From: a virus
Lineage: Duplodnaviria; Heunggongvirae; Uroviricota; Caudoviricetes
DNA: 64,000 nt
IMG/VR virus record: IMGVR_UViG_2795385584_000001
Location: 21,334 to 85,333 of that record
Strand: one strand, 5' to 3'
Part shown: in pieces, positions 38,935 to 62,732 of the stretch
How positions within the stretch are numbered: the stretch's first letter is position 1
Layout of the letters: every line of letters starts with the position of its first letter
Position numbers and translations under genes: made by a program
The notes under the pieces: generated by a model
What the model was told of the DNA's origin: nothing
Database searches by the model: none
Seen by the model: only the letters and a program-made list of their open reading frames with translations

Positions 38935-38939
38935 GACTC

Positions 38940-38995: not shown

Positions 38996-39018
38996 TAGTG
39001 CGCTATACATTCTGAGTC

Positions 39019-41482: not shown

Positions 41483-41566
41483 AGTCGTGCCCTATCGCTG
41501 GGCTGCGGGATACGTTGATGTGTCCCGTCTCTGGGTTCCATGGAAGCAGGTGCCGGGTACGCGGCG

Positions 41567-45009: not shown

Positions 45010-45212
45010 TGGCAGTCCCCGGCGTGCACGGTCCAGCACTTGGCGCAGACGTCCGTGATGGCCGCTGGCGGCGCGGCGTTGGGGCAGTCGGTGTGGATGA
45101 GGGCGTCGTCGACGTACCGGACCCAGTCGCCGACGTTGACGGGCTCGTCGCAGTCCTCGCATTGGTCTGGGTACTTGGCCTGAAATGCCCGTGATGTCTC
45201 GCTGGCGGTCAT
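45006..45212 (-). CDS. zinc-ribbon protein (68 aa)
   Basis: CEDCD...CPN...CAKC. Confidence 0.35.
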   Translation of the reverse strand: MTASETSRAFQAKYPDQCEDCDEPVNVGDWVRYVDDALIHTDCPNAAPPAAITDVCAKCWTVHAGDCQ

Positions 45213-46153: not shown

Positions 46154-46155
46154 AG

Positions 46156-46536
46156 CTACATCTCCTTCTCGTTGGCTAGTTCTAGTAGGACATCGGCGTG
46201 GCAGGGGGCGTCGAGTCGGCACCAGCAGCAGAGGTCGTGCCCTCGGAGAAGTGGCACCAGGTCCTCCACGCGTTTCATGGAGCCGAGGAGCCAGCGGCGA
46301 TACAGGCGCACTGCGTAGGCTGCCGCCCACTCGTGTGTCCCGGTGCCCCTGAAGAACGTCCCCGGCCCCTCGACGGTCCAGACACGTTCGCGACGGCGGC
46401 TGAATAGGCCGGGCTCCGTACCGGCACACACCACCCGGTACGGGTTACCCCAGCGAGATGGCCGGGCCACCACGATGGCCCCCTTCGGTTTGTGCCAGCC
46501 CGCAGTACGCCGCAACTGGATACGGATAGGCATCAA
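46156..46536 (-). CDS. DUF4326-like protein
   Basis: LRGHDLCCWC...CHADVL motif. Confidence 0.45.
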   Translation of the reverse strand: MMPIRIQLRRTAGWHKPKGAIVVARPSRWGNPYRVVCAGTEPGLFSRRRERVWTVEGPGTFFRGTGTHEWAAAYAVRLYRRWLLGSMKRVEDLVPLLRGHDLCCWCRLDAPCHADVLLELANEKEM

Positions 46537-47510
46537 ACCGCCTCCTCGCCGCTACGGCAGCCATACGGCGAGCACCCGTCTGGGTCGCCATCTTCGAATA
46601 GGTCCAGTTGCATGTCGGCGTACTCGGCGCGTGTCACGCGGTCAATTGGTGCCAGGTCCAACGGAACTCGCGAGCGGTGTAGGAATGCCTCACCGTCGAG
46701 CGGACTTGCCGAAGCGCCACCCTTGCGGATGTGCCGATCGAAGTCGACGGCGTCGGCCCACTGCGGTGCTCGGAACCGTGGGCACTCGCAACGATGTACG
46801 TCGGAGTAGTCGGCGTCCGGCGGTAGCCGGTATTCACACCAGCCATCGACGTTGTGTGCGTCGCGACGGTGTCCGCACTCGCACGTGTCGCGCAGCGCGC
46901 GCCAGGCGGCGTTTCCATGGAACGGGCATCCAATGCATGCACTCTTGGCGGTATGGCCCCATCCGGCGTGCTCTAGCCAGCGCTGGCAGTCCTTGCGAGA
47001 CATGCCCAGATCGAGCAGCGGGTAACGCGGCCGGGAGTAGTTCACGTCCAGGCGATCGCGCACGCGGTGGATCTCGTCAGTGCTGAATCCGATCCACTGC
47101 TCCGCGAACACATCACGCGGAACCGGTGTCGGGTGTGGGTAGCCCAGCAGTTCACGCGTCTTGACCTTGATCGGCTTGAGCTTGTACTCACTGGTGCACT
47201 GGCGCCGACCCATGCCCTCGCCGCCATCGACATTGCGGACGAACCACGGCACTGAGACGAACCGGTGATCAGGGTCTAGGGCGTCGGCCCGCAGATTCCC
47301 CGACGACACCCGGTACAGCGGAATATCAACGCGCGCAAGCTCGGCGCCGAGCCGGTCTACCTGTTCGTAGACTGCTAGCGGCTCCCAGCCGGTATCGGCG
47401 AACACCGCTGCGTCCAGACCGGGCAAGGTGCCGTCACACGCCATGAGCGCCAACACGGTCGACTGAACGCCAGCACCCAAAGACAGCACCCGGATAGCAG
47501 GCTCAGTCAT
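46533..47510 (-). CDS. PAPS reductase-like PP-loop protein
   Basis: VLSLGAGVQST PP-loop-like N-terminus; C-terminal Cys pairs. Confidence 0.65.
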   Translation of the reverse strand: MTEPAIRVLSLGAGVQSTVLALMACDGTLPGLDAAVFADTGWEPLAVYEQVDRLGAELARVDIPLYRVSSGNLRADALDPDHRFVSVPWFVRNVDGGEGMGRRQCTSEYKLKPIKVKTRELLGYPHPTPVPRDVFAEQWIGFSTDEIHRVRDRLDVNYSRPRYPLLDLGMSRKDCQRWLEHAGWGHTAKSACIGCPFHGNAAWRALRDTCECGHRRDAHNVDGWCEYRLPPDADYSDVHRCECPRFRAPQWADAVDFDRHIRKGGASASPLDGEAFLHRSRVPLDLAPIDRVTRAEYADMQLDLFEDGDPDGCSPYGCRSGEEAV

Positions 47511-48583
47511 AGGGTCATCTCTGGGTACTCGTCGAAGGTGCGGCCGTCGTGGTATAGCTCCCGGCCAGCTGCCTTCTTGCCGACTCGGTACATGGAGGTC
47601 GGGCGGTGATGCGGGAAGTCGGCACGGATCGCCTCGCCCCGCCGTGGGCCGTCAGGCCAGTCCAGATCGCCTGCCTCGTAGGTGTTTCCGTCGTCGGTCA
47701 TCGCGATGCTGTTCGAGAAGTCGAACCGGCCGTTTTTCAACGGCGCCATGGGTGTCCAGTCGCCCCACTGTTTGAAGAGGAAAGGGACACCGGCCGCGCC
47801 GCATTGACGGTGCAACTTCTCGGCCCACCACGGGTGCATCGGCCTGGCACCCGGCCCTGATTCGCCGCCGACGATCACCCAGTCGATGCCGCGGTCGAAT
47901 TCGTCGCGAGCCAGCAGCCCTGACGCGTCCGTATCAATCAATCCGAGTAGCGGCTCAGCACTGACGTATCGCACAGCAGCCGGGGTGTCCAACAACGCCG
48001 GGATACGGAGTTCCGCGTGCTTCTGGTCCTCAGCGCTCACACCCAGCCACACGTTCGGCAACACCTTGAACTGTCCACGCGCGAAGCCGTCTAGGGCCGC
48101 CATCACAGTGATGTCATCGACGCCATGCGGGTTCCCCTGCGCCAGCTTCGAGTTGAGCGCCTCGTACACCAGTCCTGGGAACCGTTCCGAACCGACCAAT
48201 GAGCGCATACGTCCGTGTCGCTTGGTGAGCACCTGGAACGTGTGCAGCGGCGCCAGCGCCATGACCGCCCAAACGCGGGCGATGTACTCGTCAGGGATCT
48301 TGGCGTGGAACAGGTCCGACATAGAGTTTACGAAAATGCGCCGCGGCCGGGTCCACCGGAGCGCTTGATCCAGCACCCCCGGGTGGACATTCACGCCGAA
48401 TCCTGGACCAGACGTTTTCAGGTCTCCGTCCAACTGGTAACGCGGAGATCCCATGGCCTTCAACCGCTTTGCCAAGTTCATGGCGTAGCAGTTGTCGCAT
48501 CCGGGCGAGACTTTGTCACACCCGGTTGTCGGATTCCAGGTGGCGTCCGTCCATTCGATGCCTGTCTTGTCTCCCATGCTCAT
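47507..48583 (-). CDS. phage Gp37/Gp68-family (DUF5131) protein
   Basis: N-terminus IEWTDATWNPTTGCDKVSPGCDNCYA is characteristic. Confidence 0.6.
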   Translation of the reverse strand: MSMGDKTGIEWTDATWNPTTGCDKVSPGCDNCYAMNLAKRLKAMGSPRYQLDGDLKTSGPGFGVNVHPGVLDQALRWTRPRRIFVNSMSDLFHAKIPDEYIARVWAVMALAPLHTFQVLTKRHGRMRSLVGSERFPGLVYEALNSKLAQGNPHGVDDITVMAALDGFARGQFKVLPNVWLGVSAEDQKHAELRIPALLDTPAAVRYVSAEPLLGLIDTDASGLLARDEFDRGIDWVIVGGESGPGARPMHPWWAEKLHRQCGAAGVPFLFKQWGDWTPMAPLKNGRFDFSNSIAMTDDGNTYEAGDLDWPDGPRRGEAIRADFPHHRPTSMYRVGKKAAGRELYHDGRTFDEYPEMTL

Positions 48584-48789
48584 GCCTCCTGGGGTAGATC
48601 AGCCCACGGCTGGTAGTGGTCGGGGCAGCGGATGCCGCCCTGACCGTCTAAGTCGATGGCAACCATGGCGGCCTTCCCGCAGTTGGGAATCTGGCAGTAG
48701 CCAAGGTGGGTGTCGCTGACGTTGAAGGTGATTCCACCGCCGGTGGTGTAGATGCCGGTGCGGATGTGGACTGTCTGGCTCACCGTCAT
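48580..48789 (-). CDS. small hypothetical protein
   Basis: 69 aa, coupled. Confidence 0.3.
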   Translation of the reverse strand: MTVSQTVHIRTGIYTTGGGITFNVSDTHLGYCQIPNCGKAAMVAIDLDGQGGIRCPDHYQPWADLPQEA

Positions 48790-49250
48790 TTCCCCTGGTC
48801 TGGTCGTACTTCGACGGATGGTGTGACGTCGTGGCCGGTGGCCTTGTGGTGGCCGTCGGTCCAGAGGTCACGGTCGTCTTCGGTGCCGAATGGGATCGGC
48901 TTCCCGTCGCACTGTTGGCAGGTTGCCAGGAAGTACACGGCGGGCCTGCCGGTGAATACCGTTGGAAGCAGAACCTTCTTGCCGATGGATGCCTCGGTGT
49001 CTCCGGCATCGCCTACCGCGAGGTAGCCGAGGCCGTCGTCGAAACGGGCGCCGGTCACGGTGTACTGCTCGTTGACGTGGGTGCGGTGGCCTTGTAACGA
49101 CTTGTGGCGTGCGGCAAACGCTTCCGCACGCTCCTTGCCGTCGTCTGTGCCTGGGAATTCCCACGTCTTGCCGTCGTCGGGGTTGTTGCCGTCGGCCGGG
49201 CAGTCGACGCAGACGGTTGCCCATTGACGTTGCGTGTCAATGATCTTCAT
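48786..49250 (-). CDS. hypothetical protein with Cys motifs
   Basis: Start MKIIDTQRQ. Confidence 0.35.
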   Translation of the reverse strand: MKIIDTQRQWATVCVDCPADGNNPDDGKTWEFPGTDDGKERAEAFAARHKSLQGHRTHVNEQYTVTGARFDDGLGYLAVGDAGDTEASIGKKVLLPTVFTGRPAVYFLATCQQCDGKPIPFGTEDDRDLWTDGHHKATGHDVTPSVEVRPDQGK

Positions 49251-50287
49251 CGGTCTGTGCCGCCAACTTTCTCGGCCCAGGCGACGGCGACAGCTGCGAC
49301 CTGGACGAGTTCCCGATGCAGCTTGTAGCGGAGAGCGAGGCGGGCATCGTCGGGCAGGTCTGTGGCCTGGTCCAGGAGTGTGGCGGACTCGATGGATTCC
49401 GCCAGTTCCTCGACGAGAATGTGGCCCCAGGTGGCCTGGCCGCGCTCGGCGGTCGTTTGGCACAGGAACTTGGCGCGGTTGGCGGTGGGGATCTCGTATT
49501 CCTCTGCCATCCGCTTGACCGTGCAGCCACCGACGCGTCCGGTGAGGACGGGGTCGACGTTGGGGTGATTCTGGTCGCCCCACTTCTCCTGCTGCGCATG
49601 ACGCTCGTACGCAATGAGCTGTAAGACGCGGCCAGTCACGGGCGACACGGTCGGGCTGGTGGCCGTCGTGAGGATAGGTCGCTTCGTGGCTGCTACCGCC
49701 TCGGGCTCACCGCACCCGGCCGCCCCGAACTCGTCCCATGGGATAAACCGGTCTACTTCGAAGACCTCACCGCGCCGGACGCGCATGCGGTCGATGGCGT
49801 TGTCGACGTTGGTTTCATCCGCGCGGTCCTTGCACCAGAACCCCCAAAGGCGTACCCGCCGCCCTGTCACGATGAGTGTCCAGCACGGGAGCTTGCGCTG
49901 ATCGCGGCGCGCGAGGAACTGGTTTGAGTGCGTCGCGGCCGGTACCAGCTCGACGCGGTGCCGCCATGTGCCTCGCCTGAATGCAAGCGGCCGGTCACCC
50001 CAGAAGAGGCGCCACGGCTCCGGGGCGGACCTGACGGACCGGCCCTCCTCTGTGACCTCCACGTACTGCCCCCACAGCATCAGGGAGACGAACCACCAGG
50101 GGTGGTCGTGCAGGGCGCGGTCATCGTCGTCGCGCAGGAACTTGTGGAGATAGATGTTAAGCCACCGATTGCGTGGAATCACATACCAGCGCAACAGATA
50201 TGGCGATTCACCGTCTGCGCCGATTGGTTGGTGCGGCTCCAGGCGCAACCACTTGCGTAGCCATCCTTTGTTGGTGGGCGAGGTCAT
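49247..50287 (-). CDS. two-domain protein, C-terminal MazG-like NTP pyrophosphohydrolase
   Basis: ERHAQQEKWGDQNHP ... HILVEELAESIESA helical-pair motif. Confidence 0.4.
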   Translation of the reverse strand: MTSPTNKGWLRKWLRLEPHQPIGADGESPYLLRWYVIPRNRWLNIYLHKFLRDDDDRALHDHPWWFVSLMLWGQYVEVTEEGRSVRSAPEPWRLFWGDRPLAFRRGTWRHRVELVPAATHSNQFLARRDQRKLPCWTLIVTGRRVRLWGFWCKDRADETNVDNAIDRMRVRRGEVFEVDRFIPWDEFGAAGCGEPEAVAATKRPILTTATSPTVSPVTGRVLQLIAYERHAQQEKWGDQNHPNVDPVLTGRVGGCTVKRMAEEYEIPTANRAKFLCQTTAERGQATWGHILVEELAESIESATLLDQATDLPDDARLALRYKLHRELVQVAAVAVAWAEKVGGTDR

Positions 50288-50628
50288 CGACGATCACCCG
50301 CTCCGGTCACGCGGAGACGGGCGGCGACGGTCGGGGCAACGCCGTCCCAGTTGTGCCAGGTGCGGGCGCAGGCTTGGCATATCCAGGCTTCAAACGGGCT
50401 GTGGCCCGTCTTGACTTTCAGGGACGCCTTGCAATACGCGCAGCGCAGTACGGTCTCGACATGCACGGGTTCTGGCGGGTCATCCGTACTGCCGGTTAGG
50501 CGTTGCACAAGCTTGTCGGTGTCGACGGTCTTGGAGGTGGCCTCGATCTGGTCGGCGATGCTTCGGACCATGCGGCCGGACAGGTCTAGGAGCGCGTTGA
50601 CGGCGCGTTCAATGTCGTTGGTGGTCAA
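50284..50628 (-). CDS. zinc-ribbon hypothetical protein
   Basis: CAYC...CQAC. Confidence 0.3.
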   Translation of the reverse strand: MTTNDIERAVNALLDLSGRMVRSIADQIEATSKTVDTDKLVQRLTGSTDDPPEPVHVETVLRCAYCKASLKVKTGHSPFEAWICQACARTWHNWDGVAPTVAARLRVTGAGDRR

Positions 50629-50921
50629 TGATTCTTTCCCTTGTGTCGGCGCTGGCGTCGGTTGCCAACCGGGTGTGCCAACGGGATCTCGTCGCGGCGG
50701 TGGGCGCGTTGTGGTTGTGGGCGTGGGATAGACCGGAAGGTGACCTTTGTCTGGTCGGCCTCGGGGTCGTAGACCGCGGCCACGGGCGCGTATAGGGCGC
50801 CGAACATGTCCGGCCCCCATCGCTGGTTGACGCTCATGACGTGGTCGGCGACGTCGCCCGGGTAGTTGAGGGTGTTCCGTTTGGCTGTGGGGAACATGTC
50901 GGCCTGCGTGAGTGTCGCCAT
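50625..50921 (-). CDS. hypothetical protein
   Basis: Start MATLTQADMF. Confidence 0.3.
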   Translation of the reverse strand: MATLTQADMFPTAKRNTLNYPGDVADHVMSVNQRWGPDMFGALYAPVAAVYDPEADQTKVTFRSIPRPQPQRAHRRDEIPLAHPVGNRRQRRHKGKNH

Positions 50922-51397
50922 CAGGGCTCCTTGGTGTTGTTTTCGCAGGCGTGGCATAGGGATGCTTTGACGCCCATGCGTGTACCGGTGATCGCGTTTG
51001 GATTGGCGCACTTGTCGCAGGCTGGCGGCTCAGCCCAGTGGTTGATGTCACCTTGGTAGAGGAACAGTTGCCGGTAAACGTCCGTACCGACGTTTGGCAC
51101 TTCTGCATCCCAATTGGTCTGCTGCTCCAGCCATTTAGCGAACTCGGCGGCCACGTCAGGGTCGACAGCGCGCGGTTCTCCCGGGCACTCGATGGGGTCT
51201 TCCTGGTAGAGCTTCACGACCTCCTTGCAGCTCGCGATGTGGGTTAGAGACCACACCGCGGGGTTGAGGAATTTCTCGCCCGTGTCGGTGTCGACCATGA
51301 TGGCCGGATGCATCGCGAAGTGGTCAGTCAGTTTGTCCGCGGTGACAGTCAGCCGGTCGTCCTTCTCTCCGACCAGTTCCAGCCGTACGAGTGTCAT
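50921..51397 (-). CDS. hypothetical protein with C-terminal zinc ribbon
   Basis: CDKC...CHAC. Confidence 0.35.
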   Translation of the reverse strand: MTLVRLELVGEKDDRLTVTADKLTDHFAMHPAIMVDTDTGEKFLNPAVWSLTHIASCKEVVKLYQEDPIECPGEPRAVDPDVAAEFAKWLEQQTNWDAEVPNVGTDVYRQLFLYQGDINHWAEPPACDKCANPNAITGTRMGVKASLCHACENNTKEP

Positions 51398-51672
51398 CCG
51401 TGCTCGCCCGGGTGAAGCGCGTCGACGACGGGGTGGATGATCTGGGAAGGGTCGAGGGTGATCGCGATTTCTGCTGTTATGGGCGAGAACTCGGCAGCGT
51501 CAACGGTGACCCCAACCTTGACGGTGATCTGGTCGCGCGCCAGCTTCGCCGGACGGTTGGCCCGGTACCCGGCGATGCGCAGGCCGTTGACGACCTTGAG
51601 TCCGTCGTCGCCTGTGCGGTAGCCGCGGGACGCCTCCAAGATCAGGTAGCCGGTGGCGGTGTGTGTGGTCAC
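51394..51672 (-). CDS. hypothetical protein
   Basis: GTG start VTTHTATGY. Confidence 0.3.
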   Translation of the reverse strand: MTTHTATGYLILEASRGYRTGDDGLKVVNGLRIAGYRANRPAKLARDQITVKVGVTVDAAEFSPITAEIAITLDPSQIIHPVVDALHPGEHG

Positions 51673-52070
51673 CCTGCCGCCGCCTTCTCCTTGGCGGCTT
51701 GCTCCGCGGCCTTGATGTTGACCGCGTTCTCGATGATTGGGTCCATGTACGTGTAGGCATCCCCGGGCAACACGCTTACCTTCACCGTTTCGCCGCGCAC
51801 CTTCTGGACTGCATTCGCCCAGCGCCGCAACTTGGCGACGTCGGCCAGCTGCTCCGACGAGGGACAGGTGTTGTCTAGCCAGGTGTGCTGGTCGCGGAGG
51901 AACTTGCCGCACACGTCCTTCGCCCGCGGTATCTGGTGCAAGAAGATGCGGTTGCCGGTCATGTGCGACAACAGGTCCTGCACCTGCACCACGGTGCAGA
52001 TGGCGCCTTCAGGGAGTCCGTTGGTGACGGCTAACACCGCCACCAACGGGAACCCCTTCCTCCTGCTCAC
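51669..52070 (-). CDS. hypothetical protein
   Basis: 133-aa ORF. Confidence 0.35.
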   Translation of the reverse strand: MSRRKGFPLVAVLAVTNGLPEGAICTVVQVQDLLSHMTGNRIFLHQIPRAKDVCGKFLRDQHTWLDNTCPSSEQLADVAKLRRWANAVQKVRGETVKVSVLPGDAYTYMDPIIENAVNIKAAEQAAKEKAAAG

Positions 52071-52891
52071 AGCTCGCGGATCGTGTCGGGCGCGGGACCG
52101 AACACGGACTTGATGACGGCCAGCTTCGCCACCTCGGCGTCGAACGCTGCGTCCTTGACGTCCCCGGCACGGTCCAGCTTGTAGCCGAGGAGCAAGCCGT
52201 CCTGTCCGATGCGGAACCGCAGGCGCGCGGTGAGGTCGTACACGTCGCCGCGCTCATAGACGGGGATACGGAGGGTGAAGTGCTCGGGCACCTCGATGTG
52301 TCCGCCCTTCCCGCCAGCGGTCGCGGTGGCCTCCTCCTTGTACTGGAACTGCACCTCGCCGGACTGGGTGCGGTGGCCGGACTGGAACTCGACCTTGCGT
52401 TTCGTCTGGAAGTTCTGCACAACCTCCATCAGGTCCGCTGCCGGTGGCGAGGTGATGGCCGCCAGGCCGTCCTCGATGTGCTCGGCGAACTGAATCTGGT
52501 TGAGCAGCTTGCCGTCAGCCGCCGCCCAGTGGTTCCACTCACGGGACAGCTGCAATGCCACCACGATGCGGTGGTCACGCCAGCCCTTGTCGTTCAGGAC
52601 CGCGGTGATGCGGCTCGGGCTGCGGTCGGCGTACGCGACGGCGTCGAGTTGCAGAGCGCCGTCGCTCAGCTTGTTGAAGCTGTCGACGTCCAGCACGGTG
52701 GTGGTGCCGCGGTCGCGGCGTGGGTTCGGCAGGAACCGCTCCAACGAGTCGAACTCGCGGTGTTCGTCTTCGTTTGTGACGTACGACAGGATGTGCGCGG
52801 TGTCGGGCACTACCTGCTCGGTGCGGTGCCGCTCCGCCGCGTTGGTGAGTTCGGCGACAGCGTCTGCCTCGGTGCGGATTTCGTCGGTCAT
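52067..52891 (-). CDS. hypothetical protein (274 aa)
   Basis: ORF with good coding periodicity. Confidence 0.4.
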   Translation of the reverse strand: MTDEIRTEADAVAELTNAAERHRTEQVVPDTAHILSYVTNEDEHREFDSLERFLPNPRRDRGTTTVLDVDSFNKLSDGALQLDAVAYADRSPSRITAVLNDKGWRDHRIVVALQLSREWNHWAAADGKLLNQIQFAEHIEDGLAAITSPPAADLMEVVQNFQTKRKVEFQSGHRTQSGEVQFQYKEEATATAGGKGGHIEVPEHFTLRIPVYERGDVYDLTARLRFRIGQDGLLLGYKLDRAGDVKDAAFDAEVAKLAVIKSVFGPAPDTIREL

Positions 52892-52894
52892 GGG

Positions 52895-53260
52895 TCAGGC
52901 TTCCTTTCGGATGTTCGTGGTGCTCTCGGCGACCGCTTTCATGGACTCGAATTGGAGTTGCGCCGGGTCGGTGCGGGTGACGTTGCCCTCGCGGTCGACG
53001 AACCAGAGGGATACCTGGCGGTCGGCCTGTGGCGCCTTGACGGTCACGTCGTCTTTGATGACCAACATCGAGGTGTTGGCTTGCTCAGAAACGCTGAGCT
53101 TCAACGTGAGTGACCCGGCCTTCCCGGTCGCGCGGACGGCGGCAACAACTTCCTTGAGGCCGTCGGACAGCTCGTCGTGCACGCGGCCCTTCTGGAGTTC
53201 CCGCAGGAAGTCGGCGAACGGGCGTACCCGGTCCTCTTCCTCGGGGGCTGGAGTGGTCAT
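52895..53260 (-). CDS. hypothetical protein
   Basis: Start MTTPAPEEED. Confidence 0.35.
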   Translation of the reverse strand: MTTPAPEEEDRVRPFADFLRELQKGRVHDELSDGLKEVVAAVRATGKAGSLTLKLSVSEQANTSMLVIKDDVTVKAPQADRQVSLWFVDREGNVTRTDPAQLQFESMKAVAESTTNIRKEA

Positions 53261-53286
53261 ATGGGCGGTGTTCCTTTCGTGGGGTG

Positions 53287-54169
53287 TTACTTGATGGGTG
53301 CGGGGATGGTGGCGAGTGCGCCGGTGCCGGGCCAGCAGCCCCACGGCGACATGCTCTTGTCCAGTGCCTTGGTGATGCAGTTCTGCACAATCACGTTGGG
53401 GTCGTTGGACACTGACGAGGAGAGGATGCGGTTGGCTTCGGCCTGTTCGGTGGCCGTCTTCTTCGCCTGCTCGGCCTTCGCGGTGTTCGCGCGCTCGGCG
53501 TTCAGCTCGTTGATACGGGCCTCGGTGCCGTCGTCGTAGTCGATGGTGGGGACGGCGACGTCCAGGATGTCGACCTGGTCTCCTACCAAAGCGCGCAGCT
53601 TCTCGGACGCGTCCTTGGCGAAGGTCTCCAGCGGTAACCCGTTGGCCCACTTGGTCGCCAATGGGTCGAGCTTGGAGAACACGTCGTTGAGTGAGACCTG
53701 GAGGTTGCGGGTGATCAGGTTGGTACGGACGTTGTCGAATGACCGGTATTGCACGTACAGCTCGTCGGCGGCGTCCTGCTTGATCTGCCAGCGCACGGAT
53801 ACGTCAGCGTCGGCGGTGGACGAGTTACCCAGCCGGACCTTGATGCGGCCGTTACCCTCGTACTTGTCGATCTGGACCGCTGCGTCCATCTCGTCGACCG
53901 TCGCCCACGGCTTCTTCCAGTGCAGACCGTTGGACAGGGTGTCGCCGGACGGCTTGCCGAATACCGTCTCGATGCCGACCTTGCGGGTACCAACGACCGT
54001 GAAGGAGCCGATCACGAGGACGAGAACGGCGATAGCCAAGGCGATACCGCCCATGAACAGTGTCACGACGGGGCCATCAGCACGCCGGTTGAATCGGCGG
54101 CCGACAAGCCCGCCCAGTAGTAGCAGTACTGCAATGCTGCCGAAGATCAGAAATGTTACGAATTCCCAT
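53287..54169 (-). CDS. SPFH/band-7 domain membrane protein
   Basis: N-terminal TM FLIFGSIAVLLLLGGLV plus second TM; SPFH-like core; C-terminal coiled-coil AEQAKKTATEQAEANRIL. Confidence 0.55.
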
Positions 54170-54178
54170 GACATTTGG

Positions 54179-55396
54179 TTAGTTCTCCTTGCTGGTGTTG
54201 GTGTTCGTGAGCGCAGCGATGACGCCTGCCGCTTCTGACTCGGACAGGTCGTTGATGTCCGAGATGTCCCTGCCGATGACCGTCTTGAGGTAGGCCAGTG
54301 CGTCGGCAGCGGATTCCTTGGTGCGGAACGAGTACTTGGCGTTGGCGAGAAGGCCGCGGATAGTGCCGACGTCCTTCTTCGTGGCCAGGAAATCGCCGCA
54401 GCTGTTGACCTCTGCCGGGTCGTCCCCGTCAGATGTGCCGCTGCCGGGCGGCGGCGTGGGGTCACCACCGCCCGGCGCGGGGACCTCCTCGGCCCCGGGC
54501 TCTGTAGCACCCTCGCGCTCGGTAGCGCGCTGGTCGTCGGGTGCCAGATCACCGGTCGTAGATGCCTCGGGGTCCGTTTCTGGTTGCTTCTTCTCTGCTG
54601 CCGCTGCGGTGATTTCGTCGGCCAGTGACGATGCCGCGGCCGGGAATGCCTCGTTTTTGTCGAGACCGTCGCGGGTGATGGACGTGTAGGTGATGCCCAT
54701 CTGGGCGACGTCCCCTGCGTCCCAGGCCCCGCGCTTCTTTCCGATCCGGGCTTCCATCTGGGCCTCGGTGATGCCCAGCTGCTTGCGGAACTCGGTGACC
54801 ATCTTCTCGATGCGCTCACTGAGTGGGACGCCCTCGCCGTTTTCGAGGGTGGCGCGGCACCGGTTTTGTGCTTCCTCGGTGAACCACTTGGGCAGGATCG
54901 CGCTGATGCACTCGCGTACGGCGCGGGCGCCAGCGTTGTTGTTGTTATTGGTGATGTCGCCGAGGTCGGTCAGCTCCTCGCGGCGACCGCGGGCCATGCG
55001 GGCGTGAGGGACGATGAAGGTACGGGTGGCTCGGGTATTGGTTTGGACGTCCCACGCCCAGGCCAGGATCTCTGACTCTCCCCTGGTGTCGTCGCGGTGC
55101 AACTCGTTAACGCCGTACTGGACGTTGCCCCATACCCGGGCCAGCTCGCGCATCAGGTGAACAGACGGGCCGGTGCCACGGTTGGGTACCTGGTAGAACG
55201 CTTGGACCGCCATGGCCAAACGGCTGCACGCATCCCGCATCTCTGCCTCGGCGCGGTTGAGGTCACGCGGAATCTGTTGCGCGACAATGACAGCCGATTG
55301 CACCTCGGCGATAGCGCGGGACTGCTCCACAGACGTCGCCTGGCTGGTGGCGGTACGGGTGGGAGCGGATACAGGCTGGTAGGCGGTGACGGTCAC
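54179..55396 (-). CDS. RecT-like single-strand annealing protein
   Basis: Downstream of a PD-(D/E)xK exonuclease with GTGA overlap; acidic low-complexity C-terminus. Confidence 0.5.
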   Translation of the reverse strand: MTVTAYQPVSAPTRTATSQATSVEQSRAIAEVQSAVIVAQQIPRDLNRAEAEMRDACSRLAMAVQAFYQVPNRGTGPSVHLMRELARVWGNVQYGVNELHRDDTRGESEILAWAWDVQTNTRATRTFIVPHARMARGRREELTDLGDITNNNNNAGARAVRECISAILPKWFTEEAQNRCRATLENGEGVPLSERIEKMVTEFRKQLGITEAQMEARIGKKRGAWDAGDVAQMGITYTSITRDGLDKNEAFPAAASSLADEITAAAAEKKQPETDPEASTTGDLAPDDQRATEREGATEPGAEEVPAPGGGDPTPPPGSGTSDGDDPAEVNSCGDFLATKKDVGTIRGLLANAKYSFRTKESAADALAYLKTVIGRDISDINDLSESEAAGVIAALTNTNTSKEN

Positions 55397-56292
55397 TGGT
55401 CTAGGTCTCCTTCTTGGCTGTAGACGGCATAGTTGGGTAGGGATACGGGGTGGATGCCCTGGCCGTAGTCCGGCCAGTGGTCGTTGGCGACGCATCGGGC
55501 GTAGAGGTCGATGGCCCTGCGGTTACGGCGGCGGCCAAGGTCGACGGCCTGCGGGTCAAGTTCCATGACGGACACCAGGTATGGGGCGTCCTTCGACTGG
55601 ACGATGAATACGAACGCGGCATCATCCGAGATTTCAGCGGCGGCAAGTCCGTCGAGGTACCAGGGAACCTGTTGGTGGTATCCGTATTCGGCTGCGGCCT
55701 TGGCGAAGTGAGCGGGGCTGGCACTGGTGCTCGTTTTGTAGTCGACGACAACGAGACGTCCGCGGCCGGGGTTGGGCAGCCAGTCAGGCCGGAAGCGGAG
55801 CCGGACACCGGTTTCTGGGTCGTGCCAGTACCCGGACAACTCCGGGGTGCCATCTGCCAGCAGTGCGGCGGCCAGTGGGTGTTCACGGACCTTCGCCGCC
55901 ATCGCCCGGGCCTTGGTGTCCTCGTCAACGCTCATGGGTACCTGGCCGCGCTGGCGTGCCTCGTCGACGGCCTGCTGCCACATGGCGGTGTGTGTCGGCG
56001 CCTTGGACCGTGTGCCGTCCTTGTTCAATCCGTGCACCGCGGGGTCCAAGACTGCGATCTCGCTGCCTTCGCCCAGCACGTACTTGTGTGCAGCGTGCCC
56101 AAAGTCGTACTGCTTCTTCGGCTTCGGCGGCTGCTGTTGCTCGTGGTGAAAGATCGCCGGGCAGGACGGTGACAGCAGGGAACGTGCACCTGATGACGAC
56201 AGGCTGGCTCGGTCGGCGTGGTACGCCTCGTCGGGGATACCGGCGTACACGCCGTCCACGGCGGGTATCAGCTTCACGTCGGCGGCGGTCAT
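55393..56292 (-). CDS. PD-(D/E)xK (YqaJ/RecE-like) exonuclease
   Basis: VVVDYKTS catalytic motif; upstream of RecT. Confidence 0.55.
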   Translation of the reverse strand: MTAADVKLIPAVDGVYAGIPDEAYHADRASLSSSGARSLLSPSCPAIFHHEQQQPPKPKKQYDFGHAAHKYVLGEGSEIAVLDPAVHGLNKDGTRSKAPTHTAMWQQAVDEARQRGQVPMSVDEDTKARAMAAKVREHPLAAALLADGTPELSGYWHDPETGVRLRFRPDWLPNPGRGRLVVVDYKTSTSASPAHFAKAAAEYGYHQQVPWYLDGLAAAEISDDAAFVFIVQSKDAPYLVSVMELDPQAVDLGRRRNRRAIDLYARCVANDHWPDYGQGIHPVSLPNYAVYSQEGDLDQ

Positions 56293-56639
56293 GCGTTGCG
56301 GCCCTTCGGTAGGTAGTTGTCGTGCAGGTAGATGTCGTGCAGCGGTAGCGCGATGGGGGTGTCGTATAGGTCCTGGCCGTGAGTGAGGGTGAGTCCGACT
56401 GCTTCGGCGTCCGCCGGGTTGGTGGTGACCCAGTGGTGGCAGTCGCGGCACAGGTGCACGATGTTGGCGGGGTGCCAGCCACCGCCCTGTGAACGATTGC
56501 GGCGGTGGTGCATGTCAGTCCCGTGCTGCTTGCCACACCACTCGCACCAGCCCATTGACCGGCCCTTGACGTGTTCACGGGTCAGGTCTTCGTTCCACTC
56601 GGTGATGTACGGCTCTGCCCAGATGTCGTCGGTTGTCAC
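56289..56639 (-). CDS. HNH endonuclease
   Basis: CEWCG...HHRRNRSQGG...NIVHLCRDCHHW. Confidence 0.65.
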   Translation of the reverse strand: MTTDDIWAEPYITEWNEDLTREHVKGRSMGWCEWCGKQHGTDMHHRRNRSQGGGWHPANIVHLCRDCHHWVTTNPADAEAVGLTLTHGQDLYDTPIALPLHDIYLHDNYLPKGRNA

Positions 56640-56821
56640 GCTGCGGCGCGCCGTTCCCAAAGGTGTTTGACGCGTGGGGTCCACGGCTCGCAAATCTCGA
56701 ACCTGTACCCCGACATGGGGCAGCGCGCGATGCCGTGTGGGTCGTGGTGTGTGAGGACGTTGCCGTTGGGTGTGCGGAACACGGTTGCACCGCATACTGG
56801 GCAGCGTCGCCGCGCGCTCAT
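56636..56821 (-). CDS. zinc-ribbon protein (61 aa)
   Basis: CPVCG...ARCP. Confidence 0.3.
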   Translation of the reverse strand: MSARRRCPVCGATVFRTPNGNVLTHHDPHGIARCPMSGYRFEICEPWTPRVKHLWERRAAA

Positions 56822-57026
56822 TCGTCGTCACCGGGGGCCTCGCGAAGCACTTTGTCTCGTACCCACTTACGGGCTGCGGCGCGCGCAGCGGTGGTGGTTG
56901 GGAACGGTCCCGGGTGAAAGTGCACGTTGCCCTTGTTGGAGAGCCAGCGCCAGCTCCAACCGGTGCCGTCGTTGCGTTTCTGGGTGGTTATGGCACCCGG
57001 TAGCGGCTTGGCCTTCTTGCGTGCTG

Positions 57027-57812
57027 TCATGCCGCTATGCCCTTCTTGCGTAGCCGCTTGAGCCGTGCTTCGACGGATTCCGTTGTGACTCCCATGCGTT
57101 CGGCGATCTGGTCGTTGGACAATCCGAGGTCGAGGTAGTCGCGGTAGAGGTCGATCCATACGACCTGTCCTCCGCGGATGTGGGCCGTTGCGGCGGGGTC
57201 GTCGATTTCGGTGTCGTCCCATGCCACCGGCGGCGGCCATCCCCTCTGCGTGGCGATGCGCCGTGCGACGTTGGAAGGACCTGGTACTTCCTGTAACTCG
57301 CGGTACAGGGCGTCGATCTCTCGGGCGCGGGACACCGTGACCTTCTTGACGGCGCCGGTTGCGACCTTGGACAGGCGGCCGGGGTGTAGCCCGAGGCGCA
57401 CCGAGAGGTGCTGCTGCGACCATCCGACAGCGGAGAGGGCGAGAACGCGGCGCCGTGAACCGGTGGCATCTATCCGCGCGCCAGCGGCCATCTGTGGCCC
57501 AAACGGACACACGGGCACCGGTATAGCGAGGATTGCGGCGCGGGTGGTTCGTTTCACCAGGCGCTGGTCTTCCCGGGTCAGGAAGTCGATGGCCCGGTGG
57601 GTAACTCCGGCAAGTTCCGCGATCCGGGATATGCCGACCCCCGCCGCCATCAGGGCGAGGACGCGGGTGCGGGTGTCGTCCGCTGGTACGTGCAGCGGGC
57701 TCCAGCGGCCGTCGGAGACAGCGAGGCGCCGGTACTTGGCGTAGTGAGTCGGGCACAGTCCGCGGGCCTGTACCAACTCGGTGCAGTTGGGCCGGGTGCA
57801 TTCCTTCCTCAT
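57027..57812 (-). CDS. multi-HTH DNA-binding protein with N-terminal Cys/His zinc motif
   Basis: CTRPNCTELVQARGLCPTHY; several HTH-like segments (GISRIAELAGVTHRAID; LSNDQIAERMGVTTESVEARLKRLRKKG). Confidence 0.4.
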   Translation of the reverse strand: MRKECTRPNCTELVQARGLCPTHYAKYRRLAVSDGRWSPLHVPADDTRTRVLALMAAGVGISRIAELAGVTHRAIDFLTREDQRLVKRTTRAAILAIPVPVCPFGPQMAAGARIDATGSRRRVLALSAVGWSQQHLSVRLGLHPGRLSKVATGAVKKVTVSRAREIDALYRELQEVPGPSNVARRIATQRGWPPPVAWDDTEIDDPAATAHIRGGQVVWIDLYRDYLDLGLSNDQIAERMGVTTESVEARLKRLRKKGIAA

Positions 57813-58063
57813 GACGCGCGGTTCCTACGGCGCGCCTTGCGGGCCGCGCGGTTCCGGCGGCGCCGACGCTGGACCTCGTCAGCGGGCACTGTCCCGGCGT
57901 AGGTGTTGGCCTGTCGTTGCAGTCCCAGGAAGACGGCGTACCCGAGAGTGTTGGAATTGGCGGCTGCTTGCTTCCGGAGCCGCTCCATGGGAGACAACTT
58001 GCTCGTGGCGATCTCGATGTTCTTGCTCACCAGTTGGTTGTGGCGTGCGACGGGGTCGTTCAT
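57809..58063 (-). CDS. small protein with Arg-rich C-terminus
   Basis: Start MNDPVARHNQ. Confidence 0.3.
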   Translation of the reverse strand: MNDPVARHNQLVSKNIEIATSKLSPMERLRKQAAANSNTLGYAVFLGLQRQANTYAGTVPADEVQRRRRRNRAARKARRRNRAS

Positions 58064-58632
58064 TGGTCCTTCCCTGGGTAGAGGCGGCGGAAGCATTCGA
58101 CGGTCGCGCGGGCGTCTCCCAGCGCGGTGTGCTCGGCCTCATTGGTGACGCCAAGTAGTTGGCACACCCCAGCGAGGCCGGGTATGTCGTCGGGTGGGAT
58201 GTTGAGAGTGCCTGCGGCGTAGGCGCATACGTCTGCTAGACGGTGATGCCATGGCGCCTCTACGCGAGTGCTGGCACCGGGTAGCCGCGGTTCCAGCTGG
58301 AGTAGCCACTCGTAGCCGATCAGCAGCATGTCGGCGTCAAATCGAGGGTTTGCGCCTGCCAGGGTCTGCCCTTGTAGCAGCTCGAAAACGTCTTGGTAGC
58401 AGCGGATTGACGTGTCGCGGTCAAGCTGGTCCTTGTACAGGCCCTGCTCGTAGTACATGTTGATCCGCATGGCTTCCCGGTCTGCCTTGCCCAGCTCATC
58501 TCCGGTGATGAAGGGCACGAAGCGGATTTCGCGCCCGGTCTTGAGGTTCACAGCCGCCACTTCGACTGGGAGGTGGATATTCCGGTCTAGTCCGGTTGTT
58601 TCCAGGTCGACGACCCACACGTCACGGCTCAC
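58060..58632 (-). CDS. DnaQ-like DEDDh 3'-5' exonuclease
   Basis: VVDLETTGL (Exo I) and HTALGDARAT (Exo III). Confidence 0.65.
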   Translation of the reverse strand: MSRDVWVVDLETTGLDRNIHLPVEVAAVNLKTGREIRFVPFITGDELGKADREAMRINMYYEQGLYKDQLDRDTSIRCYQDVFELLQGQTLAGANPRFDADMLLIGYEWLLQLEPRLPGASTRVEAPWHHRLADVCAYAAGTLNIPPDDIPGLAGVCQLLGVTNEAEHTALGDARATVECFRRLYPGKDQ

Positions 58633-58927
58633 GCTGACCTCCAGCGGGCGGCCTTGGTGTACAGGTCGATGAGTGGCTGATGCCATGGGCAGTAGGCAGA
58701 TACGGAGAGGGCGATGACGCGTCCGGCGGCCTGGTCGGTGAACCCGCGCTGGTTGAGGGCCTGTCCGATGCTGTTGATGCCGTGGAATGTTGGGTCGGCG
58801 CCGACGATGACGCAGACTGCGCCGCCGATGTCGTTGGCGACGTCGTTGACCCGGTCGGCCGATGCTGGCGCTGCGGTCGCGAGCGCCAGCACGGCGGCCA
58901 TAGCCACGGTGGGAAGTCGGCGCATCA
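58629..58927 (-). CDS. small secreted protein (DUF732-like)
   Basis: Signal peptide MMRRLPTVAMAAVLALATAAPASA; two Cys. Confidence 0.45.
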
Positions 58928-59541
58928 TGCTGCGGCCTCCACCAGCGCCACGAGGTCGCGTACTCGGGGCACCCGGTCCCCGTAGATGTCTGGATACTCG
59001 TCGGCCCGCCGTAGATAGCTGTCGAGCGCGCCTCGGAATCCCTCGCGTTCTTCGGTGGTGAGCACCGACCACTCATCCGGCAGGGCCACGGCGGCGTCGC
59101 CATAGATCGCGTTGCTTCCGAGGTTGCCCCCGGGGTCGGTGATCACGGACATACTGGCCCGGCGGTCGTAGAAGGCGGCCTTGTAGAAGACGCTGACGCG
59201 TTCTACGCCGCGGTCGTCGACGATGGTTGAGTGCATGGCGTGTTCGCTGCCCTTGCGTGACCACCCCTGCGGGAGGGTGACGTGGACGAACAGCGGGTCA
59301 GCCTCGACACTTTCGCCGCGTTGGAATCCCCACTGTTCCAGAACATCCCAGCCATTGATGCCGAGCATTCCGTCGCCCTCGCCTGACCACACCCGCCCGG
59401 CGTTGGCAGGGAGTAGGTCGGATTTGAGGAGCTGCTGTTGCCCGGACTGCTCCATGCCCTCGATGTAGTTGGAGGTGTTGCCGTCCAGGCAGCCGACCAG
59501 ATGTTCGATGGGGTGGCGTTGCGAGGTGTTTTCAATCATGC
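58925..59541 (-). CDS. hypothetical protein
   Basis: Probable start MIENTSQRHP. Confidence 0.3.
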
Positions 59542-59716
59542 TGCTGCACCCCAGATTTCGGCCGGGCTGCCGTGCCTGGCGGTCAGCTCGTCCCAGATTG
59601 GGTTGGGGCTCGGCGGCACCGGAGGTGGTGTTGGTTGGACACCGAATAGGGCGCGGCGCCACCACTTGGTTTCACGTATGGGCATGGCTGTCTCCTCGTG
59701 CTGAGTAGGTGGTTGA

Positions 59717-60073
59717 TCAGGTGAGTGCTAGCTGTTGGCTGCCGCCGAGGCGGTAGTGCATTTCCGCGACCCCGTTAGGGGTTAGGTAAATCTGTTTGGG
59801 TCGTTCTTTGGTTTGCCCTGTGGGCGTTTGGTATTCGCCTCCGTCATGGAGTGCGAGGTAGCCGAGCGTTACGGCTTCGGCGTAGGCGATCCATCGGTGG
59901 TCACGGCCGCGGAAGATCCAGTCCTCGTCCTCCATGGCGTCGAATAGCTGGTCGCGGCCGATACTGATGGACGGGTCAAGGGATAGCAGGCGCGCGGCCT
60001 CGGCGACGGTGTGGTCGCCGGTGATGTCGACGAGATGCATTGGCAGCTCGGGGCGTTCGTGGATGCGCGCCAT
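59717..60073 (-). CDS. hypothetical protein
   Basis: Start MARIHERPEL. Confidence 0.3.
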   Translation of the reverse strand: MARIHERPELPMHLVDITGDHTVAEAARLLSLDPSISIGRDQLFDAMEDEDWIFRGRDHRWIAYAEAVTLGYLALHDGGEYQTPTGQTKERPKQIYLTPNGVAEMHYRLGGSQQLALT

Positions 60074-60169
60074 GTCATCACCGGGCCGCCATGACACTGG
60101 CCATCAAGACGGCGCCGATGAATGCGCCGAACAGGAGCATCCAGACAAGCGGTACGACTACCTCGCGGA

Positions 60170-61033
60170 TCACCGGAGTACTTCCTGGGCCGGTGCGCCG
60201 ACGAGCTGCGGGAAGTTGGTCTTGTTCCAGCCTCCCTTGGGCTGCTGCAACCGGGCCACGTGGTGGTCGGATAGCCAGTGGTTGAAGGCGGCGACGAAAT
60301 AGCCGATGGCCTCGGCGTCGGGCATCTTGAAGCCTTCACCGCGGATGCGATCAAACCTGTTGCGCAGTGCAAGGATTGGCGATCCGATTTCGAGGCCAAC
60401 GCCGTCGAGGGTGCGTTGGAAGAATTCTGAGGTGACCTCCACGCCGTGGATGCGTCCGATGCCTGCGTAGACGGCCATGATGAGTCCGCGGCGCGCCTTG
60501 ATGCGCGTGTAGTGGGTGCCGCGCCTGATCAACTCAAAGGTGTCGGGGTTGGCAAGGCTCCACTCGACAATCTCAGAGCTGGTGACCGAGCCGGTGGCGC
60601 GGTCGGTATAGAACCAGCCGCGCTCCCAGATGATCAGCGTCTTGACGGCCGAAGCGTCGGACTTGGAGGCGGTGATGCCGGACAGGTTGAGTTGGTCGCT
60701 GGGTGACCGTTTGGTGCCCTGGTCCATGGTGATCTGGGTTTCCGGCGGCAGGTTGCGGATTACGACCGAGTCGATGGATACACCGCACAGGGAGATCGCG
60801 TGGAGGCGGTGTTGGCCGTCCAGCAGGGCGCCTGCGGTATCGAATTTGATTGCCTCGCCGTTCATCTGCCAACGGCCTGCCTCCATGTCGGCGGCCAGCT
60901 GGATGACCTTGCGCTCGTTGAGGGGCCGGTTGTGGGTGTTGAACTTGAGGTATTCGTCGGCGGTCGTGCCGTCGATGGTTTCGATGTCCGTCGTGATGGC
61001 CGGGGGCCGGTGCAGCGGTATAGCATTCGACAT
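60170..61033 (-). CDS. ParB-like nuclease domain protein
   Basis: LLDGQHRL ParB/Srx motif. Confidence 0.65.
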   Translation of the reverse strand: MSNAIPLHRPPAITTDIETIDGTTADEYLKFNTHNRPLNERKVIQLAADMEAGRWQMNGEAIKFDTAGALLDGQHRLHAISLCGVSIDSVVIRNLPPETQITMDQGTKRSPSDQLNLSGITASKSDASAVKTLIIWERGWFYTDRATGSVTSSEIVEWSLANPDTFELIRRGTHYTRIKARRGLIMAVYAGIGRIHGVEVTSEFFQRTLDGVGLEIGSPILALRNRFDRIRGEGFKMPDAEAIGYFVAAFNHWLSDHHVARLQQPKGGWNKTNFPQLVGAPAQEVLR

Positions 61034-61053
61034 GAAGCAACTCCTTGTTGTGG

Positions 61054-61953
61054 TTACGAGGGGAACTTCTCGATGACGCGTTGCAGCGCGTCTCGTGCGC
61101 GGACCAGGTCGCTCTTGCGTAGGGCGAGTTGGTCCGCGTTCTTGTCGAAGCGGTCGTCAGCCGCCAGTGCCTCTACCCGCTTCACCGCCTTCGTGACTGC
61201 CGTGGTGGCGTCGTCGAAGGAGTCTGTAATCGGCTTCCGGCGCGCCGGGGCGGGCGCGGTCTCGGGCTCCAGATCGTCTTGCTCAGGGCATTGGTCGTGT
61301 ATGACGCCGAACTCGTCGAACCGCTCGCGGTCCTCTTGGGTGGCGTTGTCGTACAGGTCGGCTCGGGCACCGCAGTGGCAGATGGCGAAGGACGTGAGCT
61401 GTGGCTCGACGCCGTCGGCTTGGGGTGCGTTGTGCACGACTGAGTACCCGTCGCCGGAAATGAGTAGCGACGGGGTCAGTGGTGGCCCGGAGGCCGTCCC
61501 GCCGTGGGGCAAGGGGGCGGTCTCCGGGTGGTCTTCGGTTGTGGGGAGGTCTGGCACGACGGCCAGGTGAGGGCGAGCGGGCTGGGTAGACGCGTAGGTC
61601 TTGCCGTCGGTGCCCATGACCGCCGCAGGTGCGGCAGATGCCGCGCCTGACAGGTCGCGGCGGACGGTGCGGTCATCGACCCCTATTGCGGAGCCGATGG
61701 CACGTGTGGACAGGCCGAGGTCGCGCAGGGACTGCACTACCTCGCCGCGGGTCTCGCGGGGGAGCTTGAACCAGGTGGACCCGAACTCGCGTTCGCAGTA
61801 GACGTCCCAGGTCGGGTATCCGAGGACCGCCCAGGCGCGGTCTGTGTATGCCTTGGCGATGAGGTCCCAGGTGCGGTCAATGGTGGCGCGGATGCGCTCG
61901 GTGAGGTCACGAGCGGCCGATGGGGACATGGCGGTGGCCGCGATGGTGCTCAT
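61054..61953 (-). CDS. HTH DNA-binding protein
   Basis: LGLSTRAIGSAIGVDDRTVRRDL HTH. Confidence 0.4.
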   Translation of the reverse strand: MSTIAATAMSPSAARDLTERIRATIDRTWDLIAKAYTDRAWAVLGYPTWDVYCEREFGSTWFKLPRETRGEVVQSLRDLGLSTRAIGSAIGVDDRTVRRDLSGAASAAPAAVMGTDGKTYASTQPARPHLAVVPDLPTTEDHPETAPLPHGGTASGPPLTPSLLISGDGYSVVHNAPQADGVEPQLTSFAICHCGARADLYDNATQEDRERFDEFGVIHDQCPEQDDLEPETAPAPARRKPITDSFDDATTAVTKAVKRVEALAADDRFDKNADQLALRKSDLVRARDALQRVIEKFPS

Positions 61954-62183
61954 GAGGCGGCCTGGGCGTAGTCGTTGAGGTCGCGGGTGGCCTGGCGTGC
62001 CTGTGCGTATAGGCGGACGGCCTGGTGGTCGAGCAGGTAGGTCTTGCCGACGAGTCGGGCGGGGATGCGGCCGGACACGGCGAGTGCCTGAAGAGTCCGT
62101 TTGGAGACGTCATACAAGGTGGCGGCCTTGCTGACCGTGATCTCGTCGGAGGCGGTGCTCGACTCATCGGGGCGTGCGGGCAT
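61950..62183 (-). CDS. Cro/excisionase-like HTH protein, divergent from repressor
   Basis: VSKAATLYDVSKRTLQALAVSGRIPARLVGKTYL Xis/MerR-type HTH; ATG at 62183. Confidence 0.5.
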   Translation of the reverse strand: MPARPDESSTASDEITVSKAATLYDVSKRTLQALAVSGRIPARLVGKTYLLDHQAVRLYAQARQATRDLNDYAQAAS

Positions 62184-62336
62184 GCGCCTATCTTGCGCAT
62201 ATTCGCAAACTGCACGCAAGTGCCCCGTCTGAGATTTGTGCAGATAGGAACTATTTAGCGTTTAGCTAGCAAGCATCCAGGGTTTGCGGATGGTTGCAGT
62301 TATGCCCACTTGCGGCTGTGCGCGTACGCGCATACC
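62184..62336. promoter_or_regulatory. divergent promoter/operator region of the immunity switch
   Basis: Near-palindrome ttgcgcatattcgcaa; 12-bp palindrome gcgcgtacgcgc; repeated TGCGCA(A)TAT. Confidence 0.4.
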
Positions 62337-62645
62337 ATGCGCAATATGACTGCTGCATTCGAATCGGGAAATATCCCCCCGAGCCGCCTGCGACACCGCT
62401 TACGGATCGCACGCGAGGAGGCGCAACTAGATCAGCACCAACTAGCCGAACTCATGGGAGTCGGACGGTCGGTGGTTGGCAATTGCGAGAGCGGACGGAC
62501 GGTGCCGAAGAAGATCGTCGTCAACGCTTGGGCATTGGCCTGCGGCGTGCCAGCAAGTTGGCTAGCCACGGGCGAAGGTGAGCAGCCGCCGGAAGATGAC
62601 GGTCCTGTGGTGCGCCCGAAGGGATTCGAACCCCTAACCTTCTGA
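62337..62645 (+). CDS. XRE-family immunity repressor; C-terminal ~12 codons lie inside the tRNA-Arg 3' end
   Basis: HTH QHQLAELMGVGRSVVGNCESG; last codons (VVRPKGFEPLTF) and stop lie within tRNA-Arg sequence. Confidence 0.6.
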   Translation: MRNMTAAFESGNIPPSRLRHRLRIAREEAQLDQHQLAELMGVGRSVVGNCESGRTVPKKIVVNAWALACGVPASWLATGEGEQPPEDDGPVVRPKGFEPLTF

Positions 62646-62683
62646 TCCGTAGTCAGATGCTCTATCCGTTGAGCTACGGGCGC
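62608..62683 (-). tRNA. tRNA-Arg (anticodon ACG), CCA encoded
   Basis: Cloverleaf by eye: acceptor GCGCCCG, D-arm GCTC..GAGC, anticodon loop CTACGGA, T-arm AGGGG-TTCGAAT-CCCTT, ACCA. Confidence 0.85.
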
Positions 62684-62732
62684 TTACTATTCAATTGTTG
62701 CAGGTCAACAGGTTTGGCCTGCAGACCGACGC

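Follow-up and report, generated by a model that had tools for sequence, protein, structure and literature searches.

A cluster MabK-type prophage at a tRNA-Arg gene of a Mycobacteroides abscessus-complex genome and its probable integration-dependent immunity cassette

The window analyzed here, a 64,000-nucleotide stretch of DNA from a viral record, contains a phage repressor gene that reads directly into a tRNA-Arg gene. The locus raises the question of whether integration at this site decides which form of the immunity repressor is produced, and where the integrase that would carry out that reaction is encoded. The window contains the right-hand end of a cluster MabK-type temperate siphophage prophage in a Mycobacteroides abscessus-complex genome, and it is very probable that the element is an intact-looking prophage seated in a tRNA-Arg(ACG) gene (attB-1), with its repressor-proximal junction inside the window and a BPs-type integration-dependent immunity cassette. 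The feature is genuine and already known, having been described for the MabK cluster and for the prototype, phage BPs. The BPs immunity cassette, made up of gp32 (Int), gp33 (Rep) and gp34 (Cro), was reportedly set out by Broussard et al. in 2013.

The body of the prophage is laid out as follows:

1..62607, minus strand, prophage body of a cluster MabK-type temperate siphophage, being the right-hand 62.6 kb of about 74.7 kb
8477-13186, tape measure gene, within the prophage body

Prophage genes lie mostly on the minus strand, with the early genes beside the immunity region followed by those for terminase, portal, capsid, tape measure and minor tail proteins. The element was found to be collinear almost throughout with prophiGD43A-5 (MW584167, 76.5 kb, host M. 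abscessus GD43A) and prophiT37-1 (OQ417969), and the aligned segments were 81-96% identical to prophiGD43A-5. Window positions 2-25000 displayed 93.5% identity to the latter with 100% coverage, and positions 19455-62644 were collinear with it at 81-95% identity, save for three short window-specific segments that have no counterpart there (39472-40325, 45007-45196 and 46525-47522). An ORF at 46533-47510 (325 aa) gave no Pfam match, while its neighbor at 47507-48583 was identified as DUF5131. Assignment to cluster MabK was made on nucleotide similarity to prophiGD43A-5 and prophiT37-1 and on the use of attB-1 with the 3′ end of the tRNA pointing at the repressor, the junction coinciding with the ends of the prophiGD43A-5 record. 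Among virion-sequenced phages, Bipper (cluster Y; gp50 Int, gp51 Rep, gp52) came nearest in the structural genes, at ~77% identity over parts; its host is M. smegmatis, and similarity at the DNA level was limited to 13% of a 25-kb query.

At the right-hand end of this body, the following features overlap one another:

62346-62645, plus strand, prophage-form immunity repressor of 99 aa, XRE/CI-type HTH, integration-truncated (from the ORF list, Pfam and PHROG)
62608-62683, minus strand, host tRNA-Arg(ACG), the attB-1 target (ARAGORN; Rfam RF00005, 71.6 bits, full length over 62611-62683)
62608-62644, no strand assigned, 37-bp att core at the repressor-proximal junction, with an exact second copy at the integrase-proximal junction of clonal assemblies
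62643-62645, plus strand, hybrid stop codon TGA, in which TG are the last two core bases and A is the first tRNA-only (host) base

The repressor product matched the Pfam families HTH_31, HTH_3 and Phage_CI_repr and PHROG 2328 'transcriptional repressor' (E 1.8e-30). The likeliest start, judged from the sequence, is the ATG at 62346, giving 99 aa, because the PHROG profile and the N termini of BPs gp33 and Bipper gp51 align there; the alternatives, ATG 62337 and TTG 62310, are less likely, and a 1-nt deletion in prophiT37-1 throws the upstream ATG out of frame, which also favors ATG 62346. The preliminary description had stated that the ORF terminates inside the tRNA-Arg gene and draws its last 12 or so residues from tRNA and core sequence, and this was borne out. 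The ORF overlaps the 3′ part of the tRNA gene by 38 nt, so that residues V88-F99 (VVRPKGFEPLTF, 12 residues) and the stop codon are read from the antisense of the acceptor and T arms, giving the C terminus ...GFEPLTF. A chance ORF lying over the tRNA was ruled out by the strong family matches and by conserved homologues that end at the same residue. When compared with the prophage form of prophiGD43A-5, the protein showed a single difference, V88M.

The 3′ end of the tRNA-Arg(ACG) gene is rebuilt from phage sequence, and the gene is transcribed towards the repressor, so the two are convergent. The part of the core common to phage and unoccupied host sequence is 35 bp long (62610-62644), since the single lysogens L051 and L045 read host GAGTGCG... 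at the far junction, and it covers rep codons 89-99. No other copy of the core was detected in the window using a 41-nt core probe with ≤3 mismatches, and a search for direct repeats returned nothing relevant. The tRNA 3′ end supplied by the phage is CCA (TGG on the plus strand, 62608-62610), while the far-junction host copy in L051 and L045 reads GAG, from which it follows that the rebuilt tRNA-Arg gene gains a templated CCA end.

In a scan of species representatives, 27 loci (L007-L033) had an identical 28-nt tRNA-Arg core whose next base differs from the A of the window. The taxa were mostly actinobacteria, namely Mycobacterium, Mycolicibacterium, Nocardia, Salinispora, Amycolatopsis, Rhodococcus and Terrabacter. 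At two of these loci (L008 and L010) the sequence continues in tRNA-like fashion, with the look of a variant tRNA gene and not of a junction, and none of the 27 derives from the present prophage, the source strain not being among the representatives scanned. Judged from these sequences, integration at this tRNA-Arg 3′ end seems to be widespread, making it a likely hot spot.

Where the integrase lies was addressed from both sides of the left boundary of the window. It had been stated that no integrase is encoded anywhere in the window, and the search agreed: a profile built from homologues of 250-420 aa (among the 120 matches listed) gave no hit at E ≤ 10 in the six-frame ORFs of the window. 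The annotation of prophiGD43A-5 likewise places no integrase in the part that matches the window, and the three window-specific segments, considered as places where one might be hidden, yielded DUF5131 or nothing with Pfam and nothing with the integrase profile. On the prophiGD43A-5 record, window coordinate 1 falls at about position 64,460, so that a further ~12 kb of prophage was expected to the left, with lysin A, lysin B and holin among its genes. Using the 838-aa minor tail protein (1100-3616, minus strand), an identical copy of which is encoded on each of 23 contigs, the NCBI contig FVLB01000021.1 (GCA_900135545.1; locus L034) was reached, and it was 100% identical to window positions 1-13616 (13,616 bp). 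This locus runs 8.9 kb further left, through lysin A, lysin B, holin and a polymorphic-toxin/immunity/WXG cassette. The remaining left end was found by a homology search with the prophiGD43A-5 integrase followed by exact look-ups, which led to FVKW01000016.1 (L055) and FSGQ01000013.1 (L052), neither of which differs from the L034 extension at any of the 8,088 bases of overlap (100% identity). Look-ups with the integrases P0001 and P0122 gave related, non-identical prophages (82-96% in the overlap) and were set aside, the clonal assemblies being obtained with P0121. The integrase-proximal end was accordingly read from FVKW01000016.1 and FSGQ01000013.1, as clonal assemblies, and not from the window's own contig.

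The placement of lysis genes and integrase beyond coordinate 1, presumed in the preliminary description, was thus supported, as was its prediction of a second copy of the tRNA 3′ core on that side. In window-equivalent coordinates, the 37 bp of positions 62608-62644 recur without a mismatch at about -12,084 to -12,048 (L055 at 8138, L052 at 9557). Directly after this second core, the clonal assemblies carry 35 in-frame codons of a rep tail (WSVVRNPLTCIDTEPTDLAERRSRRRAPLPDTAAA) and a stop. The stop of the virion-form rep is followed after ~125 nt by the start of a tyrosine integrase gene in the rep orientation (PF00589, 334 aa), and the Pfam matches of its product comprise the catalytic domain alone (residues 133-279 of 334 aa). 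Between the lysis genes and the integrase lie a polymorphic toxin (733 aa), a GAD-like/Tdi1_C immunity protein and a small DUF6317/WXG-type protein (L034 18511-21693, window-equivalent about -4,900 to -8,080). This region was ~79% identical to prophiGD43A-5, far more diverged than the rest of the prophage, which fits the cassette swapping reported for MabK (PMC9934374).

The two junctions were then joined through one core, giving the order rep 5′ part, core and GTCAGTAG... tail. The attP common core falls within the repressor ORF, the rejoined junctions forming one continuous ORF of 134 codons; the codon at the position of the hybrid stop becomes TGG (Trp), and 35 more codons are translated. 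The virion-form repressor is therefore 134 aa long and ends ...PLPDTAAA, while the prophage form stops at the junction after 99 aa. At the sequence level, the virion form has a candidate C-terminal degradation signal, which reads -DTAAA at the left end of the clonal assemblies and -EADAA for prophiGD43A-5. As a point of difference from the two closest MabK prophages, the tail belongs to the type ...AERRSRRRAPLPDTAAA and not to the type ...VAHRSRRRAAELEADAA. In the attP form, rep and the tyrosine integrase gene are co-oriented with int downstream, and the cro-like gene is divergent. Neither of the two findings that the preliminary description had named as speaking against its reading was made, namely a different integrase with an unrelated core or a phage-form repressor with the same C terminus as the prophage form.

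The other side of the cassette comprises a second regulatory gene and the sequences between it and rep:

61950-62183, minus strand, Cro-like HTH gene of 77 aa, divergent from the repressor (PF12728 HTH_17, E 8.4e-8; PHROG 7506, E 5.8e-18)
62184..62345, no strand assigned, divergent regulatory region of 162 bp from the cro-like gene to rep
62193-62208, candidate operator TTGCGCATATTCGCAA, a 14/16 palindrome beside the cro-like start, from an inverted-repeat search
62333-62338, possible -10 hexamer TACCAT, 7 nt before ATG 62346, recognized by eye
62337-62347, inverted element ATGCGCAATAT, related to the candidate operator and overlapping the rep start

The divergent gene had been described as Cro/Xis-like, and the family match together with 44% identity to the BPs gp34 Cro protein (E 2e-17) supports that description. 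It is annotated as 'excise' in relatives and heads the early lytic operon. Conservation of the candidate operator motif extends to GD43A-5, T37-1 and Bipper, and the BPs OR palindrome CGACATATGTCG can be aligned with it. The 16-mer occurs once in the window, against 0.16 occurrences expected, and no further copies were present in the window at ≤3 mismatches. BPs gp33 is known to bind five loci, and the single candidate operator seen in the window counts against the favored reading of the cassette as a BPs-type one. The hexamer TACCAT, if used as a -10 element, might give a leaderless rep mRNA; a sigma-70 consensus scan of 61900-62950 returned no promoter match.

At ~2 kb from the immunity region, a further regulatory gene was observed on the minus strand:

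59717-60097 and 60170-61033, minus strand, KilAC antirepressor and ParB-like neighbor region

The antirepressor carries a KilAC domain (PF03374, E 5e-11) and adjoins a gene annotated in a relative as encoding a ParB-like nuclease domain. An antirepressor beside a tag-controlled repressor suggests a second route of induction.

Taken with work on related phages, the arrangement can be accounted for as follows. The circular phage genome would have the order cro-like gene (divergent), rep and int, with the 35-bp attP common core inside rep codons 89-99. In this form rep would encode the 134-aa repressor, whose 35-residue C-terminal extension would carry an ssrA-like -AAA/-DAA signal. Recombination of attP with the tRNA 3′ end by the tyrosine integrase would then split rep. 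Its 5′ part would stay beside cro, and the TGA completed by the first tRNA-only base would yield a 99-aa, tag-free repressor able to maintain lysogeny, while the rep tail and int would be moved to the other end of the prophage, ~12 kb left of window coordinate 1. Work on BPs showed that a C-terminal tag directs the long repressor form to degradation, active repression being left to the short form (PMC4557955, Villanueva et al. 2015). By analogy with that work, we infer that the 134-aa form would be degraded and confer no immunity, and that the 99-aa form would be stable and active.

The preliminary description had likened the locus to integration-dependent immunity systems with attP inside the repressor gene, and the core in codons 89-99, the homology to BPs gp33 and gp34 and the published account of MabK prophages all sustain that comparison. 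MabK prophages at attB-1 are described as using integration-dependent immunity (Dedrick et al. 2021, PMC8092301), with attP in rep, a first bacterial base that completes the stop codon, a tRNA that points at the truncated repressor, and integrases that lack ssrA tags (PMC8092301). The same authors state that immunity should be conferred with the truncated prophage form of the repressor only (Dedrick et al., PMC8092301). Each MabK point of that account was reproduced in the present prophage, including the integrase end ...LYPGS. Both prophiGD43A-5 and prophiT37-1 resemble the window in having attB at the tRNA-Arg 3′ end, in the core and in gene order, and in the prophiGD43A-5 record the repressor is split over both record ends, an attP within the immunity repressor is noted, and a tyrosine integrase is placed at the far end.

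Likeness to BPs extends to the protein and to the site. A tblastn search of sequenced phages with the virion-form repressor returned 149 records, BPs gp33 among them (52.9% identity, E 5e-28). The short BPs form, gp33^103, and the 99-aa repressor of the window end at the same ...GFEPxTF residue, and the long forms are 136 aa in BPs and 134 aa here, so that the virion form exceeds the prophage form by 33-35 residues. Both have a tRNA-Arg attB, a divergent cro and int downstream of rep; BPs and Weirdo19ES are known to integrate at tRNA-Arg (PMC7194413). The annotated BPs attP contains an imperfect version of the window core, lying within the uninterrupted gene for gp33. There are, however, several differences. 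BPs has a 42-kb cluster G backbone, whereas the MabK backbone is ~75 kb and resembles cluster Y (Bipper). At the C terminus of the tail, BPs has -DKAS where -AA is found here, and BPs int overlaps the rep stop whereas int here starts ~125 nt after it. The operators also differ in sequence, CGACATATGTCG in BPs and GCGCATATTCGC here. Of the two systems, it is BPs that has experimental support. In Bipper, whose repressor is 65.8% identical to that of the window, gene 51 is intact with the window core inside it (identical at 36 of 37 nt), the tail ends -CDAA, and int lies downstream on the same strand.

A related attP-form cassette was observed in Mycobacteroides franklinii CV002 (NZ_MAFQ01000024.1; L019 1360-2772, minus strand), on a 20-kb contig. 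Here, a 133-aa repressor-like ORF reads through the tRNA-Arg core to an -SRAA tail and is followed by a 323-aa integrase on the same strand ending -QSAA. This locus may represent an unintegrated or otherwise resident phage genome.

The geometry could be real and yet functionally neutral, with the core overlapping the gene by chance, no regulatory role for the tail, and immunity independent of integration. We consider this very unlikely. In its favor, the MabK integrase ends ...LPPLYPGS and lacks the -AA tag seen in several other integration-dependent systems, which also counts against the preferred reading. The C-terminal tag of Int varies among accepted integration-dependent members and is not strictly defining. 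A further point for neutrality comes from prophiT37-1 (OQ417969.1; also L005 and L006), where joining through a single core gave a virion form that ends ...TFC*, just one residue longer than the prophage form. This indicates either that the C-terminal swap is not universal in MabK or that the record has an indel. The deposited repressor feature (1-392 plus 76069-76210) spans both core copies, and reading through both puts the ...RNPLTCIDTEPTDL...TAAA tail in frame; the short virion form thus reflects a genuine 1-nt deletion or else an artefact of annotation or sequence. Since the adjacent frame still encodes the homologous ...RNPLTCIDTEPTDL...TAAA, a recent 1-nt indel or an erroneous sequence is indicated, and not a family-wide loss of function. 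Moreover, a 35-residue tail that is open, in frame and ends -AA was present in all 11 of the other MabK-type integrase arms retrieved, the deposited prophiT37-1 end being the sole exception. The virion-sequenced Bipper likewise ends -CDAA, and tag-dependent inactivation of the long form has been shown for BPs gp33, a 53%-identical homologue (PMC4557955).

That the element is instead a defective remnant, its repressor truncated by decay, its excision lost and the arrangement a fossil, is highly improbable: the left end is known from the clonal assemblies and not from the window's own contig, and the far junction in the clonal assemblies abuts a second integrase-bearing element and not host DNA, but the window is nearly fully collinear with prophiGD43A-5, the identical minor tail protein recurs on the 23 contigs, the core repeats are exact with int and the rep tail intact, and, for the related prophiT37-1, cultures and supernatants have been shown to contain attP (Amarh et al. 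2023, PMC9934374).

Integration-dependent immunity therefore remains the preferred reading of the cassette, and its value here is practical only, open questions not being advanced by the finding. The described cluster gains a further MabK prophage whose repressor tail is a variant one, and a single prophage junction sufficed for integration-dependent immunity to be recognized from sequence only. MabK-type repressors and attB-1 also bear on the prediction of superinfection immunity in M. abscessus phage therapy and on integrating vectors.

The clonal assemblies differ from prophiGD43A-5 and prophiT37-1 in that the prophage stands in tandem with a second integrase-bearing element. This element, and not host DNA, abuts the integrase-proximal core in L055 (1-8137) and L052 (1-9556), and the same was observed in L053, L038, L039 and L046. 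It encodes its own tyrosine integrase, of 410 aa or 387 aa, which ends ~20 bp from the core. L039 shows an element of ~9.6 kb flanked on both sides by core copies, at about 100 and 9734. It seems common for the tRNA-Arg site to be occupied in tandem. At the repressor end, no terminator separates rep from the tRNA-Arg(ACG) gene, into which it is read in antisense. It is conceivable, if improbable, that recombination between core copies could couple the mobility of the neighboring element to the switch in repressor form, and that antisense rep transcription might modulate tRNA-Arg(ACG). If coupled, excision via the outer sites would remove both elements and the tagged repressor would not be restored.

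A further observation concerns the middle of the window:

35884-37599 and 37898-38500, minus strand, Ro60/TROVE gene and tRNA-like repeats

The gene belongs to the Ro60/TROVE family (PF05731, vWA_Ro60) and lies beside four tRNA-like repeat units spaced ~150-166 bp apart. ARAGORN called a tRNA-Thr(tgt) at 38272-38350, where Rfam gave no tRNA at gathering score, and sub-threshold Rfam matches to YrlA (Y RNA-like) were obtained at 37898-38001, 38084-38140 and 38244-38305. The annotated phage 'tRNA-Thr' may thus be a tRNA-like module of a phage Y RNA array.
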